Source of the DNA: an uncultured Ruficoccus sp.
Lineage (GTDB): Bacteria; Verrucomicrobiota; Verrucomicrobiia; Opitutales; Cerasicoccaceae
Assembly: GCA_965140785.1 (NCBI GenBank)
Contig: OZ223475.1
Coordinates: 128,001 to 192,000, forward strand
DNA length: 64,000 nt
Direction: 5' to 3'
Shown: one piece after another, positions 3,235-56,930 of the stretch
Layout of the letters: each line of letters starts with the position of its first letter
Numbering within the stretch: the first letter of the stretch is position 1
Program-made: the position numbers and the translations under genes
The notes under the pieces: generated by a model
Told to the model about the DNA's origin: nothing
The model's input: the letters and a program-made list of their open reading frames with translations, nothing else
The model's database searches: none

Positions 3235-4662
3235 TGCACTTGCGAAAGATATTTGAGCGCGTCAGTCCTGCCAGGAATTTTTGGTCCTGTGGAGTATTCG
3301 ATTCTGTGGTTTCTTGTTCCTTTACAGCAACTTATGGTTTTTGAAAAAGTTGTCTTGAAACCGCAAGCTTTACTTCTGCTGAGCATGTTGGCAGGTTGGA
3401 TGAACCGTCAGCAGCAGCAAGTCATCGACTATTTGGTGGAGGAGAATCGAGTTCTTCGTGAGCAACTCGACATCCACGCCAAGGGCAAACGCATTCGTTT
3501 CAACGCGAACCAACGCAGGCGCTTGGCTGAGAAAGGCCGTTGCCTGGGGTGTAAGATGTTGATGAAAATCGCGACGCTCGCGACACCAGAGACGATTTAC
3601 CGCTGGCATCGTCAGATTGTTGCAATGGCTTATGCCCCGAAGGGCCGGGATCATTCCGTAGTTCATGCCGGGCGGGCTCAGCGCAATGCGCTCATCATCA
3701 AGCTGGCCGTGGAGAACTCAGGCTGGGGATACACGCGTATCCAAGGCGTGATGCAGAATCTCGGCTATCCCAAACTGAGCACTTCGACTATCGGAGAGGT
3801 GCTGCGCGAGGCGAGTATCCGGCCTTCGCCGGAGCGCGGCAGTCGCTTGAATTGGAAGACGTTCATTCGCGTTCATGCCGATCAGCTTGCTGCCACAGAC
3901 TTCTTCATGGTGCCGGTGTGGACCTTGCGCGGACTGGCCATGTGCCGGGTGCATTTCGTGATCGATCTGCTGACGCGAAAGGTGGAGATCACGCATATCG
4001 GTTGCCAATACTCCGGAGAGTTGATGCTCCAAATTGCCCGGAACCGGACGGATGCATTCGAAGGATTTTTGACCGGCAAAAAGTACATGCTGCATGACCG
4101 AGACCCGCTCTTTACTCAGGCATTTCGGGATCTGCTGCGTAGCAGCGATACGATACCTCTGAAGCTGCCACCGCGCATGCCGATGATGAACGGCTACGCG
4201 GAGTGCTTCGTCAAATCGATCAAGCGTGAGTGTCTGGATAAGATGATTTTCTTCAGCGAGGATGCTCTGCGGAAGGCCATCGCTCAATACGTGCTGCATC
4301 ACCTCCATGAGAGGCCGCACCAGGGCCGCGATAACAAAATCATAGAGCCGGATGTAGAAACCTTTAGGAATCAGGGCCCGATCCGAAAAATCGCACACCT
4401 CGGCGGGCTCCTGAATCACTACTATCGCGATCCATTACCGGAAATTGGCGAAGAGGAGGGGAGGGCTGCATGAGCTTTTCCGAGAGTCACTTTTCTTCAA
4501 AAAATGCCCGAGTCCGATGCCCGGGTGACTCCTTTCCCATCGACTCATATGCCCTGAATCGGCAAAATCATGGGTGTATGATTTCGCCCTCCAACCTGCA
4601 AGCGAAAGGACTTCTGGCACGCGCAAGTGACTGAGCGATGCGCGTCAATGCGACTGCGTGCA
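3235..4662 (+). mobile_element. rve/IS481-like insertion sequence (ends uncertain)
   Basis: Imperfect terminal inverted repeats: TGCCAGGAAT at 3269 vs ACTTCTGGCA ending 4619, possibly extending to TGCAC (3235) / GTGCA (4662). No target duplication seen. Confidence 0.55.
3253..4473 (+). CDS. Integrase-core (rve, IS481-like) DDE transposase; the only apparently intact copy
   Basis: WGYTRIQG, AATDFF (D), LHDRD (D), NGYAECFVKSIKRECLD (E), HERPHQG and LGGLLNHY. The true start may be downstream (ATG 3334). Confidence 0.88.
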   Translation: MSASVLPGIFGPVEYSILWFLVPLQQLMVFEKVVLKPQALLLLSMLAGWMNRQQQQVIDYLVEENRVLREQLDIHAKGKRIRFNANQRRRLAEKGRCLGCKMLMKIATLATPETIYRWHRQIVAMAYAPKGRDHSVVHAGRAQRNALIIKLAVENSGWGYTRIQGVMQNLGYPKLSTSTIGEVLREASIRPSPERGSRLNWKTFIRVHADQLAATDFFMVPVWTLRGLAMCRVHFVIDLLTRKVEITHIGCQYSGELMLQIARNRTDAFEGFLTGKKYMLHDRDPLFTQAFRDLLRSSDTIPLKLPPRMPMMNGYAECFVKSIKRECLDKMIFFSEDALRKAIAQYVLHHLHERPHQGRDNKIIEPDVETFRNQGPIRKIAHLGGLLNHYYRDPLPEIGEEEGRAA

Positions 4663-8080: not shown

Positions 8081-8670
8081 TTTTATGTTTAAATAAAATA
8101 AACAGAATGGATTGTCTGCTCGGAACAAATGTATTTAAATCGCTATGATTACTCTTAAATACTCGAAATATTCGCGTTTCAAGGAAAAATTCCAAATTTC
8201 TTGTGTTTAATATTTACGAACAGATTAGTTGTTGGGCGGTGCTTGCATTAAAACAGCCCCGGGTGGGGCAGGCAGCATATCTAGCCCGCCGACTAGCGAT
8301 TATCGGCCGCACATGGGCACAGCTAACGCGGGTCGACACTCGTAGTGCCGGAATCGGTATCGCTTGGGGACCGTTTTCAGGCAACGGTTAGGACCAAATG
8401 GCTGCGCCCGCCGAGGTGGCTTTCTGCACGGCGCGGTGCCATTCGGCTTCGCAGCGACCGAGGAATTTTTCCCAGCCATTCAGTGTGCCGTTCGAACCAT
8501 AGTCGCGCATGGTATCTTCGTAGAGCTCGCCATGCGGTCCATTTGAGTATGCTATTTTATGATTTCTCATACATTGACAGCAACTTACGGTTTTTTTGAG
8601 AAAGTGACCGTGTCCACTTAAACTGAGCCGCTTGCAAAGTTAGTCTGAGTGCTTAGAAAGGACTCAGACG

Positions 8671-8937
8671 ATGAAAGGCAAGCGATACAGTACAGAGCAA
8701 AAAATCCGCATTTTACGCGCCGCTGATGCTGGCAGAGCGATCGTGGATGTCTGCCGCGAGGCAGGGATCAGCGAGCAGACGTTCCACCGCTGGAAGCGGG
8801 AGCTTGGGATGCTGGAAGTCGATCAGGCCAAGCAACTGAAGGAACTGCAAAAGGAGAACGCTCGGCTGAAGCGTATGCTGGCGGACGAGATACTTGGTAA
8901 GGAGCTGCTGAAGGAGGCGCTCGAAAAAAAATGGTAA
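8671..8937 (+). CDS. IS3 transposase OrfA
   Basis: MKGKRYSTEQKIRIL...GISEQTFHRWK HTH and coiled coil; ends KKW*. Confidence 0.92.
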   Translation: MKGKRYSTEQKIRILRAADAGRAIVDVCREAGISEQTFHRWKRELGMLEVDQAKQLKELQKENARLKRMLADEILGKELLKEALEKKW

Positions 8938-9911
8938 GCCCTGCACACAAGCGCGAGATGGCGCAAACTCTGGTGTCGCAGGGCAGATGTTCAGCGCGGG
9001 CGGCCTGCCGTCACTTTGGGTTGCATCGCAGTACCTTCGGCTATCAGGCGAAGGAGACTACGCCCTGGTTGGCAAAGTTACGTGGGGCTTTGCGTCGCAA
9101 GAGCGAAGCGCATCCCGAGCTGGGTTACCCGAAAATCACTCATCTACTCAAGCGCGATGGTTGGGACGTAGGTAAGCGGCTGGTGCAGCGCCTGCGCCAG
9201 GAGATGGGGCTGAAGTGTCCGACTAAGAAGCCTCGTCAGCGTCGGCGCGGCCCCTCGACGGGCTTACCGACAAAGGCTACTCATCGCAACCACGTGTGGA
9301 CCTGCGACTTCGTGGCCGACCGTACGGCTAAGGGCGGATCAATCCGCATGCTCACGGTACTCGATGAGTACACCCGTGAGTGCCTGTGCATCCACGTCGA
9401 TCGCCACCTCAACGCCGCCAAGGTGCGAGCCGTCATGAGCGAGTTGATCAGTGCCTACGGCAGCCCCGAGCACATCCGTAGCGACAACGGCAGCGAGTTT
9501 ATCGAGAAGAGCCTGCGTAAATGGTACGCGGACGAGGAGATCAAGACGCTCTACATTGAGCCGGGCAGTCCCTGGCAGAACGGCTACATAGAATCCTTCA
9601 ACGGCAGACTCCGCGATGAGTGCCTCAACCGCGAGTGGTTTTATACGCTCACCGAGGCACGCGTGGTCATTGAGGACTGGAGGTGGAAATACAACAACAT
9701 CCGCCCGCACCGTTCACTCGGACTGCTCACGCCGCTCGAGTTTGCAGCCAAAGAAACCGCACCAACCCCCTTCGACATCAACTTCCAAGGCATGGGCTAC
9801 ACTCGGGCTACGCCCTCCTTGCGCCCAAGCCTTGACACCCTCTACAACCTAACCCTAAATCACATCATTAACCCGCTCAGACTAACTCTCAATGCGGTAC
9901 AGTTTGCGTAG
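8931..9911 (+). CDS. IS3 transposase OrfB (DDE), reached by -1 frameshift
   Basis: WTCDF, IRSDNGSEF, PGSPWQNGYIESFNGRLRDECLN and YNNIRPHRSL. Confidence 0.92.
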   Translation: MVSPAHKREMAQTLVSQGRCSARAACRHFGLHRSTFGYQAKETTPWLAKLRGALRRKSEAHPELGYPKITHLLKRDGWDVGKRLVQRLRQEMGLKCPTKKPRQRRRGPSTGLPTKATHRNHVWTCDFVADRTAKGGSIRMLTVLDEYTRECLCIHVDRHLNAAKVRAVMSELISAYGSPEHIRSDNGSEFIEKSLRKWYADEEIKTLYIEPGSPWQNGYIESFNGRLRDECLNREWFYTLTEARVVIEDWRWKYNNIRPHRSLGLLTPLEFAAKETAPTPFDINFQGMGYTRATPSLRPSLDTLYNLTLNHIINPLRLTLNAVQFA

Positions 9912-9919
9912 GCAGGTCA

Positions 9920-17945: not shown

Positions 17946-18518
17946 AAATCTCGGTTATTCTAAGCTGAGTACTTCGAGCATCGGGGAGGTCTTGCGAAAG
18001 GCTTGTATTCGCCCGTCGCCGGAGCGCAGCAGCCGTTTGGACTGGAAGACGTTTATCCGTGTTCACGCCGATCAGCTTGCCGCAACTGACTTCTTCATGG
18101 TGCCGGTTTGGACCTTGCGCGGCCTGGCTATGTATCGGGTGCATTTCGTGATCGACCTGCTGACACGCAAGGTGGAGATCACGCACATCGGTTGCCAATA
18201 CTCGGGCGAATTGATGCTTCAAATTGCCCGGAACCTGACGGATGCGTTCGAAGGATTCCTGACCGGCAAGAAATACCTGCTGCATGATCGCGATACTCTC
18301 TTTACAAATGCGTTCCGTGAGTTGTTGCGAAGTAGTGGCACTATCCCTTTCTGGCTTCCTGTGTGCATGCCGATGATGAACGGCGGGCGCTACGCCAGCC
18401 CGCCCGGCTACGCCGAGTGCTTCGTCAAATCGATCAAGCGTGTACCGAGCCTGCGAAGCGGCGACAAAGCGAAGCGCCCATGCCTGGACAAGATGATTTT
18501 CTTCAGCGAGGATGCTCT
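17946..18518 (+). pseudogene. Internal fragment of the rve transposase with two short inserts
   Basis: High identity to 3757-4268; carries inserts at 18385-18408 and 18442-18480; deleted through to the TGGCA end. Confidence 0.88.
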
Positions 18519-18525
18519 TCTGGCA

Positions 18526-18671
18526 CGCGCATGTGACTGAGCGATGCGCGTCAATGCGACTGCGTGCAACGCTACTGGTTTAATTACGCCTTAACTCGAA
18601 AATGAATGAAGTTGCTGTATGCTGGTAATCAGTGATTTAGGTGCGGATGTCCGCGTCCCGCCACCTCCACC
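18526..18671 (+). repeat. att-like boundary unit 2
   Basis: GCCTTAACTCG, IHF-like AATCAGTGATTTA and core TCCCGCCACCTCCACC (18656-18671). Confidence 0.8.
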
Positions 18672-39139: not shown

Positions 39140-39326
39140 GATGCACGGCCTCCGGGCGTCCCTTGTCTCCTTCAGTTCACCCCGGCCTGTACGTCGAGGA
39201 GGCGGTGGAGCTTTTCGGTGGCGAGGGGAGGAGGTTGAGGTTACCTTTGAGGGCTTCGGTGAAGGCGCTCTGGAGGGACCAGAGGGTGCGTTCACGGAAG
39301 CAGGGGTGGACGGGGTGGCGCCACTT

Positions 39327-40525
39327 GAGTATCAGATTTTCTGGTTTTCTTGTACCTTGGGAGCAACTTGCAGCTTTTCGAGAAAGCTGGCTTGAGCCCG
39401 CAAGCTTGAGTTTTGCTGAGCATGTTGGCGGGGTGGGGGAAGCTGCGAAGCGCTGTCCTATGAACCGTCATCAGCAGCAAGTCATTGAATACTTGGTCGA
39501 GGTACCGAACTGAGGCATAGCCTCGGTGACAAAGCGCAGCGCCCAAATCGTATTCTTCGTGAGCAACTCGACATCCACGCCACGGGCAAACGCATTCGCT
39601 TCAACGCGAACCAGCGCAGGCGTTTGGCCGAGAAGGTCGCTGCTTGGGGCGTAAGATATTGATGAAAATCGCGACGCTCGTGACGCCGGAGACGATCTAC
39701 CGCTGGCATCGTCAATTCGTCGCGATGGCCTATGCTCCTAAGGGTCATGATCATTCCGTTGTCCATGCTCGGCGGGCCGAGCGCAATGCGCTCATCATCA
39801 AGCTGGCGGTTGAGAATTCGGGCTTTGTATACACGCGTACCCAATATTTGATACATAATTTCGGCTATCCCAAGCTGAGCACTTCGACCATCGGAGAGGT
39901 TCTGCGCGAGGCGGGTATTCGCCCGTCGCCGGAGCGCAGCACTCGTCTGGACGGGAAGACGTTTATCCGTGTTCACGCCGATCAGCTTGCAGCCTCGGAC
40001 TTCTTCATGGTGCCGGTGTGGACCTTGTGCGGCCTGGCCATGTGCCGGGTGCATTTCGTGATCGACCTGATGACACGCAAAGTAGAGATCACGCACATCG
40101 GTTGCCAATACTCCGGAGAGTTGATGCTTCAAATTGCCCGGAACCTGACGGATGCGTTCGAAGGATTCCTGACCGGCAAGAAATACCTGCTGCATGATCG
40201 GGATACTCTCTTTACAAATGCGTTCCGTGAGTTGTTGCGCAGTAGTGGCACTATCCCTTTCAGGCTGCCTGTGTGCATGCCGATGATGAACGGCGGGCGG
40301 CGAGCCAGCCCGTCCGGCTAAGCCGCGTGCTTCATCAAATCGATCAAGCTTGTACCGAGCCTGGGAAGCGGCGACAAAGCGAAGCGCCCATGCCTGAACA
40401 AGATGGTTTTTTTCAGTGAAGGTGCTCTGCGAAAGGCCATCCGTGGATATGCTCTGCATTACCATCATAAGTGGCCGCATCAGGGCCGTGACAACCAGAT
40501 CATCGAGCCGGACGTGGAAACCTTT
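39327..40525 (+). pseudogene. Degenerate rve/IS481-like transposase with four short hairpin inserts
   Basis: Colinear with 3292-4365; frameshifts and stops; inserts at 39437, 39502, 40295 and 40352; cut by IS3 at 40526. Confidence 0.88.
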
Positions 40526-41836
40526 CGACGTGCTCCCCCCCAAACAGTCCGTTATTGAATGAGAGTTCTGTGTCCTTAAACCGAACAGAACCATGTCTAA
40601 AGGAAAACATCACAGCGAAGCAGAGATCATCCGCATATTAAAGGAGGCCGCAACGGGGATGCCGGTGGCCGATCTTCTTCGTGAGCACAACATCTCACAA
40701 GGAACGTACTACCGATGGAAGAGTGCTTACAGCGGGATGCAGGTAAACGAACTGAAGCGCCTCAAAGAGCTTGAGAAGGAGAACGAGCGTTTGAAGCGTC
40801 TGGTGGCCGATCAGGCGCTGGACATTGTCATGCTCAAGGACATCAACTCAAAAACTGGTGAAGCCTGCAGCCAGACGGGTCGCGGCAGATTATCTGCAAA
40901 GCGATTATGACGTCGGCGTAACCCGTGCCTGCGGGCTGATCGGAATCTCACGTAGCAGCTACCGCTACCAATCCTGCCGTGGCGATGATGCCCCGCTGCG
41001 CACAGCGATCCGCCAAAAGGCCCAGGAGCGTAAGCGCTGGGGCTACCGACGGTTGCAGGTGTTGCTGCAACGCGACGGATACATGGATAATCACAAACGT
41101 ATTTACCGGATCTATCGTGAGGAGGGACTGCAAGTGAGGAAGCGCCGCCGTAAACGTGCTCGCTCCAAACGCAGCTTTGAGCTGTTGCCCAGCAGTGGAG
41201 CCAACCAACGCTGGAGCATGGACTTTATGCACGACAGTACGGCCTCGGGTCGCAAGCTGCGCATCCTTAACGTGGTCGACGACTACACGCGGGAGGCTCT
41301 CTGGATGGAGGTTACCTCCTCGATTAGTGGCCAATACGTCACCCGTGTGCTGGACCGTATCATAGAACTACGCGGCAAACCCGAATGCCTGCTCACAGAC
41401 AACGGCCCCGAGTTTGCCGGGGCAGCTCTGGATGCCTGGACTTACGAGCGAAAGATCAAGCACCAGTTCATCCAGCCCGGTAAGCCCAACCAAAACGCCT
41501 ATGTCGAAAGCTTCAACGGTAAGGTCCGCGACGTACCGAGCCTGTGCCATCGGCACGGCGACACTCAAGCGAAGCGAAGACATGCCTCAACGGACACTGG
41601 TGGCGCAATATCGACCATGCCCGTCACTGTATCGAGCGCTGGAGGGAAGACTACAATCAGGTCCGACCGCACAGCTCATTGAAAAACCAAACCCCGCAAG
41701 CCTTCGCACAAAAAACGCGAGCCCCCCCCCTAGGGGGGCTACAGACCAGTAACAGGCTTGCAACTACAAACCCAAATACACAACCTAACTACCCAGCACT
41801 CTCATTTTGATCGGGACTAAAAAGGGGGGCACGTCG
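40526..41836 (+). mobile_element. Second IS3-family element (different type), degenerate
   Basis: Inverted repeats CGACGTGCTCCCCCC / GGGGGGCACGTCG. OrfA starts at 40593 (MSKGKHHSEAEIIRIL); OrfB has WSMDF, TDNGPEF and QNAYVESFNG. The slippery run appears one A short, and a 50-nt insert at 41533 frameshifts OrfB. Confidence 0.88.
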
Positions 41837-41837
41837 G

Positions 41838-42053
41838 AACAACATCCGAACTCACCGTTGCCTCGGACTGCTCACGCCGCTCGAGTTTGCGGCCAAAGAA
41901 ACCGCACCCGAGCCCTTCGAAACCAACCTCCAAGGCATGGGCTACGCCCTCCTTCCGCCCAAGCTTTGACTCCCTCTACAACCGAACCCTTAATCACATC
42001 ATTAACCCGCTCAGACTAACTCTCAATGCGGTACCGTTTGCGTAGGCAGGTCA
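41838..42053 (+). mobile_element. 3'-terminal remnant of the IS3 type at 8605-9919
   Basis: Matches 9694-9919, including the right end CGTAGGCAGGTCA. Confidence 0.85.
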
Positions 42054-55616: not shown

Positions 55617-56930
55617 TGACCTGCCTACGCAAACTGTACCGCATTGAGAGTTAGTCTGAGCGGGTTAATGATGTGATTTAGGGTTAGGTTGTAGAGGGTG
55701 TCAAGGCTTGGGCGGAAGGAGGGCGTAGCCCGAGTGTAGCCCATGCCTTGGAAGTTGATGTCGAAGGGGGTTGGTGCGGTTTCTTTGGCTGCAAACTCCA
55801 GTGGTGTGAGCAGTCCGAGTGAACGGTGGGGTCGGATGTTGTTGTACTTCCATCGCCAGTCCTCGATGACGACGCGTGCCTCGGTGAGCGTATAAAACCA
55901 CTCGCGGTGAGGCACTCATCGCGGAGTCTGCCGTTGAAGGATTCTATGTAGCCGTTCTGCCAGGGACTGCCCGGCTCAATGTAGAGCGTCTTGATCTCCT
56001 CGTCCGCGTACCATTTACGCAGGCTCTTCTCGATAAACTCGCTGCCGTTGTCGCTACGGATGTGCTCGGGGCTGCCGTAGGCACTGATCAACTCGCTCAT
56101 GACGGCTCGCACCTTGGCGGCGTTGAGGTGGCGATCGACGTGGATGCACAGGCACTCACGGGTGTACTCATCGAGTACCGTGAGCATGCGGATTGATCCG
56201 CCCTTAGCCGTACGGTCGGCCACGAAGTCGCAGGTCCACACGTGGTTGCGATGAGTAGCCTTTGTCGGTAAGCCCGTCGAGGGGCCGCGCCGACGCTGAC
56301 GAGGCTTCTTAGTCGGACACTTCAGCCCCATCTCCTGGCGCAGGCGCTGCACCAGCCGCTTACCTACGTCCCAACCATCGCGCTTGAGTAGATGAGTGAT
56401 TTTCGGGTAACCCAGCTCGGGATGCGCTTCGCTCTTGCGACGCAAAGCCCCACGTAACTTTGCCAACCAGGGCGTAGTCTCCTTCGCCTGATAGCCGAAG
56501 GTACTGCGATGCAACCCAAAGTGACGGCAGGCCGCCCGCGCTGAACATCTGCCCTGCGACACCAGAGTTTGCGCCATCTCGCGCTTGTGTGCAGGGCTTA
56601 CCATTTTTTTTCGAGCGCCTCCTTCAGCAGCTCCTTACCAAGTATCTCGTCCGCCAGCATACGCTTCAGCCGAGCGTTCTCCTTTTGCAGTTCCTTCAGT
56701 TGCTTGGCCTGATCGACTTCCAGCATCCCAAGCTCCCGCTTCCAGCGGTGGAACGTCTGCTCGCTGATCCCTGCCTCGCGGCAGACATCCACGATCGCTC
56801 TGCCAGCATCAGCGGCGCGTAAAATGCGGATTTTTTGCTCTGTACTGTATCGCTTGCCTTTCATCGTCTGAGTCCTTTCTAAGCACTCAGACTAACTTTG
56901 CAAGCGGCTCAGTTTAAGTGGACACGGTCA
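55617..56930 (-). mobile_element. IS3-family element (copy 2) with a 1-bp frameshift in OrfB
   Basis: Inverted near-identical copy of 8605-9919. OrfA 56598-56864; OrfB from 56604, frameshifted near 55908 (CTCAACCGC to CTCACCGC). Confidence 0.93.

Follow-up and report, generated by a model that had tools for sequence, protein, structure and literature searches.

A candidate family of very small inserts that replace a GAR triplet in transposase genes of an uncultured Ruficoccus sp.

Repetitive extragenic palindromes (REPs) are imperfect palindromes of 20–40 bp that carry a GTAG/CGTC tag at the foot of the stem, lie mostly outside genes, usually exceed 100 copies and flank the gene for a REP-associated tyrosine transposase (RAYT). 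Elements of the IS200/IS605 type, which follow a 'peel and paste' route, insert 3' of a conserved tetra- or pentanucleotide without loss of target bases. Insertion into mobile DNA costs the host little, and the retrotransposon R2 makes small deletions at its target. End-to-end template switching and target-primed insertion leave fixed ends, no duplication and the loss of a few target bases, while the bypass of phage T4 gene 60 has a layout of stop codon plus hairpin with matching codons. The subject here is an insert of 37–52 nt, termed E, found in a 64,000-nt stretch (the window) of an uncultured Ruficoccus sp., positions 128,001–192,000 of contig OZ223475.1 (C4:128001-192000 in our numbering) in a draft genome of 4.36 Mb with about 60% G+C. 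With modest confidence we regard E as a family of non-coding, very small, non-autonomous mobile inserts. A full-text literature search, which led to PMC2817692 and PMC3733652 on REP and RAYT, gave, in its listings and the opening parts of abstracts, no description of such an element.

Anatomy and insertion rule of E

A profile built from 16 regular-expression matches was run over the whole genome with nhmmer and hits were accepted up to an E-value of 0.058. This returned 25 copies of E, four of them in the window and 19 with E-values below 2e-7; since the gapped pattern had no match in 100 shuffled sequences, chance is excluded. The copies fall into subtypes A (39 nt, five copies), B (44 nt, ten copies including one truncated and two recombinants), C (50–52 nt, six copies) and D (38–39 nt, four copies). 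Their common plan, from 5' to 3', consists of a GTACCGA box, a variable hairpin whose stem begins 1–3 nt beyond this tag, a GACAMA linker, a GCGNAGCG mini-hairpin and a 3' end that reads CC(C)A or, in subtype C, GAAGACA (a GACA end). The variable hairpin is a stem of 7–8 bp in subtypes B and C and in the forms of the related genome G019; in A and D it amounts to little more than a GC-GNA-GC mini-hairpin flanked by G.A mismatches, and subtype D, the most widespread, has 0–3 predicted pairs in the mini-hairpin. Among 29 copies the variable region takes 23 distinct sequences. These include at least four unrelated stem sequences, all able to pair, which makes the hairpin a conserved feature of E; the covariation was taken from the sequences and single folds, the subtypes being misaligned by MAFFT. 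No terminal inverted repeats were found in E, the ends GTACCGA.. and ..GCGCCCA not being inverted copies of each other. A comparison of the window's copies with Rfam 15 gave no match up to an E-value of 5, and four loci of relatives gave tRNAs only.

All four copies in the window are on the plus strand. The copy at 41533..41582 is of subtype C (50 nt, other C copies having 51) and replaces the Glu of ..VESFNGKVRD-E-CLN in orfB of an IS3-family insertion sequence (IS), for a net gain of 47 nt; a contig of the public run X4 carries a homologous, uninterrupted IS3 gene with G+AG in the place of 41533/41583. The host element (40593..41762, plus strand) is present once in the genome and consists of orfA (40593-40910, HTH_Tnp_1) and orfB (from 40825; HTH_21, rve, rve_3). 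Its orfB has open frames of 246 codons ahead of E and 75 beyond it, so that E is the only visible lesion. At 18442..18480, between aagcgt and tgcctg, a 39-nt copy of subtype A lies in a 5'-truncated rve_3-family transposase open reading frame of 182 aa (17992..18540, plus strand), where the in-frame peptide VPSLRSGDKAKRP stands for the Glu of ..KSIKR-E-CLDK (net +36 nt). The corresponding codon of an intact 406-aa rve_3-family transposase (3253..4473, plus strand) is an empty GAG at 4228-4230 (KR-E-CLD; aagcgt-GAG-tgt), and a second empty target of this gene is GAG 3442-3444 (LVE-E-NR). The other two copies interrupt one decayed rve_3-family element (39163..40560, plus strand) with 14 stops between them. 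That at 39502..39545 (subtype B, 44 nt, with an 8-bp hairpin) lies between ..QQQVIEYLVE and NRILREQL and replaces the second Glu of YLVE-E-NRILREQL, YLVE-E-NR being read in empty paralogues and in database homologues; that at 40352..40390 (subtype A, 39 nt) occupies the K(R/L)-E-CLN site. TGCCT follows E directly at 18481, 40391 and 41583. An earlier reading of the window (the sequence-only reading) had described the 18442 insert as in frame, the IS3 gene as broken by a 50-nt variant, the 39502 insert as seated on a Glu codon, and the codon as exchanged for G+insert+A without duplication and, in two cases, with TGCCT behind it; each of these statements is borne out by the sequence.

Empty paralogues in the same genome are available for seven site classes, and in all of them a GAR triplet (R being A or G) has been swapped for E, which starts with G and ends with A exactly where the empty site has GAR. 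The uninterrupted paralogues read aagcgt-GAG-tgc, gtcgag-GAG/GAA-aay, caggac-GAG-tgc, acccgt-GAG-tgc, aagcgt-GAG-ctt and, in a further class, ctg-GAA-gta and gtg-GAA-ata. Target-site duplication is absent. The ends of E are fixed, as is its orientation relative to the asymmetric target. The 5' flanks are varied (ending in cgt, gag, gac, cgc, ctg, gtg, ttc or cct), and the replaced GAR is the sole invariant feature of the target. In the ctg/gtg-GAA class (IEDWRW|YNN) the replaced GAA is off-frame (tgG AAg, Trp-Lys), so the rule acts on DNA or RNA and not on codons.

Beyond the triplet itself, GAR followed by T(G/C)CCT is preferred. Against a background of 3,408 coding bases of intact IS genes, with 128 sense-strand GAR triplets of which 68 are in frame, TGYC[TA] follows GAR in 6 of 10 site classes compared with 4 of 128 background triplets (P = 1.8e-7). 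Nine of the ten classes are in frame (P = 0.018) and all ten are on the sense strand (P = 0.004); these two biases arise largely because the Glu-Cys-Leu target is asymmetric, the remaining four classes being too few. Since four of the six TGYC[TA] classes represent one homologous site, nine residues past the catalytic Glu (Glu+9, see below), the classes are not fully independent. The sequence-specific target GAATGCCT proposed in the sequence-only reading therefore stands as a preference that is visible across the genome (25 copies collected, seven classes with empty sites), but it is not obligatory: four classes lack it, namely VE|NRILREQL, RWKR|LGM, DNGP|FAG (in a relative) and IEDWRW|YNN, and relatives use tRNA and intergenic sites. 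Targeting of a hairpin loop was considered and rejected, as in DNA folds of ten empty sites the whole GAR lay in a loop in two and part of it in one.

Host transposases and the age of the insertions

All 25 copies of E in this genome are inside rve-type transposase genes, which belong to one single-frame, rve_3-only family of about 360–400 aa and to several IS3-family lineages. The rve matches number 27 in 4.36 Mb, about 1% of the genome, and represent practically its sole IS type, there being two DDE_Tnp_1 fragments and no Transposase_mut. When the intact IS3-family OrfB was aligned to retroviral integrase cores, the catalytic Glu was that of ..yiEsf.. (..yiEsfngrlrdEcln against ..lvErtNGiiKn-lLn). 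The codon replaced by E (..rdEcln) is a conserved Glu nine residues further on, and the suggestion of the sequence-only reading, a site just after the catalytic residue rather than on it, was thus correct. The same suggestion had one homologous Glu codon hit in different transposase families. Glu+9 is indeed occupied by A-type copies in the rve_3-only family and by C-type copies in at least three IS3 lineages (that of the window, C4:241720 and C26:99794), the contexts being AECFVKSIKR|CLD, VESFNGKVRD|CLN, (M)ESFHN.LQD|CLK and VESFNEKFRR|CLN. Recombinant right flanks reading CLNREWF suggest a fourth IS3 lineage. A second Glu-Cys-Leu, TR-E-CLC, located after the first catalytic Asp, is likewise occupied in two IS subfamilies.

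Most copies shift the frame or bring stops, among them the D-type copies and five of the six C-type copies. Several host genes are intact apart from E. All five A-type copies are in frame and open, and one 51-nt C-type copy is open within a 384-aa frame. Inactivation of the transposase by E, as the sequence-only reading expected, is likely, although the 39-nt type and the one 51-nt copy leave the reading frame open.

The divergence of the host genes bears on the timing of insertion. Copies of E at the same site are 96–98% identical (378/390, 258/264, 126/132 and 113/117), their 300-nt IS flanks 69–81%. In pairwise comparisons the host genes have proportions of synonymous differences (pS) of 0.33–0.55 and ratios of nonsynonymous to synonymous divergence (dN/dS) of 0.03–0.10. 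In the rve_3 family, the stretch from one E site to the other has a pairwise synonymous divergence (dS) of 0.43–0.98, and two of the E-bearing copies have a frame there that is open or almost open; the E-bearing copies of this family are no closer to each other than to empty ones. Near-identical inserts in diverged genes indicate that the insertions were recent and repeated, and because within 40 nt of the junction pairs of E-bearing copies are no more alike than pairs of E-bearing and empty copies, co-conversion is not indicated. The simplest reading of these comparisons would be recent, repeated and precise insertion into IS copies that had already diverged.

Five copies join the left flank of one site to the right flank of another (C26:99296, C26:178766, C10:469904, C39:139355 and C48:103170) and are deletions between two E copies within one IS. 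Rearrangement borders coincide with E, including that of one truncated B copy at C10:448165. An ISX-like 3' fragment (ISX is described below) at window position 41838 begins within a few bases of the position of E in other copies. In a 21-kb contig of metagenome run X3, the homologous IS3 element has a 197-nt deletion corresponding to window positions 41386-41582. Its two ends, now joined, are KPE|CLL.. (with GAATGCCT near 41380) and the right-hand edge of the E site; TGCCT is common to both, and the deletion spans the interval between two preferred target sites.

The IS3-family element ISX (8605..9919, plus strand) has empty E targets at GAG 8800-8802, GAG 9378-9380, GAG 9618-9620 (RD-E-CLN) and GAA 9686-9688. 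It occurs in 11 copies that are 98.5–100% identical and have typical TGACC...GGTCA ends, another of these copies lying in the window at 55617-56930 on the minus strand; judged from these sequences it is probably active now. A second tiny insert was seen in rve_3-family copies at 18379-18414 and also at about 40285-40320. It is a 24-nt, in-frame, GC-rich palindrome that turns ..MMNGYAECF.. into ..MMNGGRYASPPGYAECF.. and is not in the intact copies or database homologues. As to the VPSLRSGDKAKRP peptide, among 95 near-length homologues it occurs only in the window's own protein, and it is in none of the best 120 of 177 longer homologues, a count in which split reading frames may be missed. Contig C9 (44 kb) has 39% G+C compared with 57–63% in the nine other contigs listed, and could be of plasmid, phage or foreign origin.

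Relatives, tRNA loci and the mode of movement

Within a set of 41 related genomes the E pattern was found in four, including this one (22 matches here, one each in G003 and G011, three in G019), the reversed control pattern giving 0–1 matches per genome. A phylum sample of 401 genomes contained 13 with a match; only this genome and G071 (six) had more than one, and single matches were about as frequent for the control pattern. A scan of species genomes gave at least 119 stretches, almost all of them chance matches in unrelated phyla, and five loci among the matches listed passed nhmmer, one of these being doubtful. The D-type pattern was present in three metagenome contigs, all with the same tRNA-Ser unit, and none of 26 pattern matches in viral contigs was confirmed by nhmmer. 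As far as searched, and among the matches listed, E is restricted to Opitutales-type Verrucomicrobiota.

G003 carries a B-type E at the identical LVE|NR site, and in G011 an IS3-type gene is interrupted at DNGP|FAG by a D-type E. In G019, G071, two named Opitutaceae records of metagenome-assembled genomes and three metagenome contigs, E stands in tRNA contexts. The GAR rule is kept in relatives at eight tRNA loci and one intergenic site; the tRNA targets are TTC-GAA/GAG-TCC in the T-loop and GTC-GAA-TGG in the D-loop, with GAR replaced in all. In a Pelagicoccus record E is intergenic and antisense to the neighbouring genes. At locus L038, E is directly within the T-loop of a second copy of tRNA-Ser(GGA). 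In the other T-loop cases it occupies a partial 3' copy of the tRNA; such copies make up one or two tandem units, 105–135 nt long where readable, that follow an intact tRNA, the hosts being Ser-GGA, Ser-GCT, Ser-TGA, Arg-TCT, Arg-CCT, Pro-CGG and Gln-CTG. At locus L158, partial 5' copies that precede a tRNA-Ser carry E in their D-loop.

The tRNA units were observed at L040, L042 and L043 (G071), L004 and L006 (G019), L126, L158 and L166. A segment of 40–55 nt upstream of E is common to different tRNA loci of one genome (motif GA[TC]GAGAAC..GGTTC). In some units this segment is able to base-pair with the part of the tRNA that follows E, or with the 5' end of E. The units may have arisen through tandem duplication followed by decay, may be scars left by integration, or may represent a longer form of E. 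A hammerhead-like reading of the GA(U/C)GAGAAC motif was dropped, the core misfitting by eye and Rfam giving no match.

As a mechanism, we propose that E would be a site-specific, non-autonomous selfish element for which conserved, multi-copy and dispensable sequences, such as a transposase motif and tRNA loops, would serve as safe havens; its insertion would mostly knock out the host transposase. In rve/IS3-type genes the preferred motif codes for the conserved Glu-Cys-Leu nine residues past the catalytic Glu, and it also resembles the T- and D-loops of tRNAs. Very tentatively, E might move in the form of a folded single strand that a trans-acting enzyme processes. A single-strand DNA route is favoured for one reason, that GC-GNA-GC motifs are very stable as single-stranded DNA mini-hairpins.

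Several observations weigh against this proposal. No mobilising gene was found among the candidates examined, i.e. Y1/RAYT transposases, reverse transcriptases, retrons and a longer parent element. As a partner, a RAYT or other Y1 transposase was rejected: Y1_Tnp is present in this genome, G019 and G071, gave no match in the E-bearing G003 and G011, and occurs in the E-free G002, G007 and G009. The two Y1_Tnp loci of this genome have other repeats, none of them E-like, and no E was matched at six Y1 loci in G019 and G071. In G011 and G019, both of which carry E, a search for reverse transcriptase found none. The only such enzyme in this genome belongs to a type IX retron, which was rejected as a source of E, its non-coding RNA being unlike E. 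A longer parent was likewise rejected when a scan of this genome for solo 5' or 3' halves found none; it returned the truncated B copy at C10:448165, and other solo 3' motifs were chance-like. The genome holds 716 GARTGYCW and 288,774 GAR sites, so a sequence target alone cannot account for the restriction to IS genes. Each subtype keeps its own sites (in this genome A only KR|CLD, D only YNN), a fidelity that a single trans-acting enzyme does not explain. The RNA folding energy of E is unexceptional compared with shuffled sequences (z from -1.8 to +1.3). As regards ongoing activity, the 11 near-identical ISX copies have target sites and no E. Finally, members of the rve_3 family have either both the A and the B type (three copies) or neither (two copies), and the E-bearing copies are under strong purifying selection; a harmless inherited insert would fit these two findings equally well. 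The insertion mode of E fits no tested transposition chemistry, for which reason an enzyme of unknown kind, or an RNA- or DNA-guided step, may act.

Two neighbouring observations concern the enzymes searched. The type IX retron is located at C39:272375-275941 (L174) and comprises an HTH_IX gene, a structured non-coding stretch and RT_IX (1.9e-117, PADLOC). G071 contains a multi-copy element, present at 26 places and many times at contig ends, that matches only the N-terminal half of the Y1_Tnp profile; no E was found near the three copies examined.

Alternative readings and comparison with described elements

The best of the alternatives, though an unlikely one, is that E is tolerated in expression, being removed from the RNA like an intron, or read through or hopped as a coding gap, so that the host genes are functional and E is inherited. 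Two E-bearing rve_3 copies with a dS of 0.44, a dN/dS of 0.06 and frames open between the E sites point this way, as do the joint presence (n=3) or joint absence (n=2) of A and B types, the open A-type copies and the one open C-type copy. With a dS of 0.44, however, the 2 differences seen in 83 nt of E are too few, about 15 positions per copy varying across the family, and the D-type and five C-type copies are closed. At LVE|NR, AAC and a subsequent TGA stop mark the foot of the B-type hairpin, and E is followed directly by the codon AAC or AAT, an arrangement that recalls the gene 60 bypass. These take-off and landing features are present in all four non-recombinant B copies at LVE|NR but in none of three at TR|CLC, where a matching landing codon is missing. 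Excision of E, with or without the terminal G and A, restores neither GAR nor the frame here, and Rfam gave no match. All IS and tRNA copies are in sense orientation, but this is trivial given the asymmetric Glu-Cys-Leu target, the other four site classes being too few. E-bearing IS, unlike the E-free ISX, are never accompanied by near-identical copies. A closely allied version, which we rate a trifle lower, has E landing on the transposase Glu codon or in tRNA loops and being harmless there, as it is then removed, read through or hopped and is carried by functional transposases; this would explain the purifying selection, the in-frame A copies and the B-type layout of stop, hairpin and AAC...AAC.

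It is improbable that E is the DNA copy of a small RNA, such as a tRNA 3' half with its CCA, made through ligation or template switching of a reverse transcriptase and followed by recombination. Most subtypes do end in CCA, E is the size of a tRNA half, and GTACCGAGG at its 5' end is also the sequence immediately ahead of the T arm in a tRNA-Ser of a relative. Fixed ends, the lack of duplication and the loss of 2–3 target bases are as expected of such a route, and the targets are transcribed multi-copy genes. Against it stand the missing reverse transcriptase of G011 and G019, the dissimilar RNA of the one retron in this genome, the failure to find a master gene for E in this genome and the intergenic, antisense Pelagicoccus copy, and the invariant GAR target is left without account.

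Just as improbable is a history of one or a few ancient insertions spread by IS transposition and gene conversion, in which target specificity would be mere homology. It is consistent with same-subtype copies at homologous sites of paralogous IS, with the confinement of E to repeated DNA (IS genes and tandem tRNA copies) and with a TGCCT(C/G)(A/G)A microhomology common to four Glu+9 sites. Yet the flanks diverge within 3–10 nt of E, E-bearing pairs being no more alike than pairs of E-bearing and empty copies; the E-bearing rve_3 copies are not mutual closest relatives, and one subtype is found at unrelated sites (B at LVE|NR and TR|CLC, D at YNN and in tRNA loops). It is very improbable that E records the action of a host system which inactivates transposases through the insertion of a cassette: in this genome E does occur only in IS genes, several per old IS with the young ISX untouched, but relatives have it in tRNA genes and intergenic DNA, candidate machinery was not found, and the subtypes evolve as a selfish repeat family would.

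If the preferred reading of E as a non-autonomous mobile insert is true, E would be a hyper-parasite: with some 40 bases it would reside in transposase genes of other mobile elements and put them out of action, through recognition of a conserved coding motif, tRNA loops being used instead in related bacteria. If removal or bypass at the level of expression were established, E would represent a bacterial coding-gap element of a new kind, a counterpart of mitochondrial byp elements or mobile mini-introns. E is, in addition, a natural marker with which IS activity can be dated in these genomes.

Several classes of described elements invite comparison. A miniature inverted-repeat transposable element derived from a DDE transposon was rejected, as E has neither inverted terminal repeats nor a duplication and the IS3 ends (TGACC..) are unlike its own. 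A group I or II intron or a known small ribozyme was also rejected, with no match in Rfam and a length of 37–52 nt that is too small. Archaeal-type bulge-helix-bulge introns have two 3-nt bulges, set 4 bp apart and involving exon sequence, and go with a splicing endonuclease. In the T-loop copy of L038, inspection by eye showed no helix of 4 bp that would link the insert's first bases with the 3' exon, and the flanks at different IS sites are mutually unrelated. With R2 in rDNA, tRNA-targeting retrotransposons and integrases, and group II introns in IS, E has in common a conserved, multi-copy target, and with R2 also a small target deletion. It differs from these in being 40–50 nt long, in coding for nothing, and in having no Rfam ribozyme and no linked reverse transcriptase or integrase. 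Like the Rickettsia palindromic elements, byp (27–55 nt, Magnusiomyces mitochondria) and the gap of T4 gene 60, E is a short mobile insert inside coding genes. In keeping with these elements, some E copies stay open and in frame, and a stop and hairpin of the B type come after a codon that recurs right past the insert; in contrast to them, most copies break the frame, and E targets a defined triplet and prefers transposases.

The palindrome-associated elements derived from IS200/IS605 resemble E in being asymmetric, with subterminal hairpins at both ends and no inverted terminal repeats, in making no target duplication and in their strict orientation to the target. A mini element of the IS200/IS605 type proper was rejected, since E has no conserved 5' flank and GAR is lost. 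REP/REPIN elements, which include REPs inside genes and are mobilised by RAYT enzymes of the Y1 HUH type, are likewise tiny, non-coding, hairpin-bearing and non-autonomous, and have a 5' tag (GTAG in REPs, GTAC.. in E), no target duplication and subtypes with covarying stems. In contrast to REPs, E is not extragenic, has 25 copies only, all 25 in transposase genes and never as a doublet, replaces GAR, is site-specific for a coding motif and has no linked RAYT. Membership in the REP/RAYT (REPtron) group was rejected, the tag of E being GTACCGA with the stem 1–3 nt further on, and copy number, location and RAYT linkage all differing from those of REPs. In its target rule and host range E is unusual among small structured mobile repeats.

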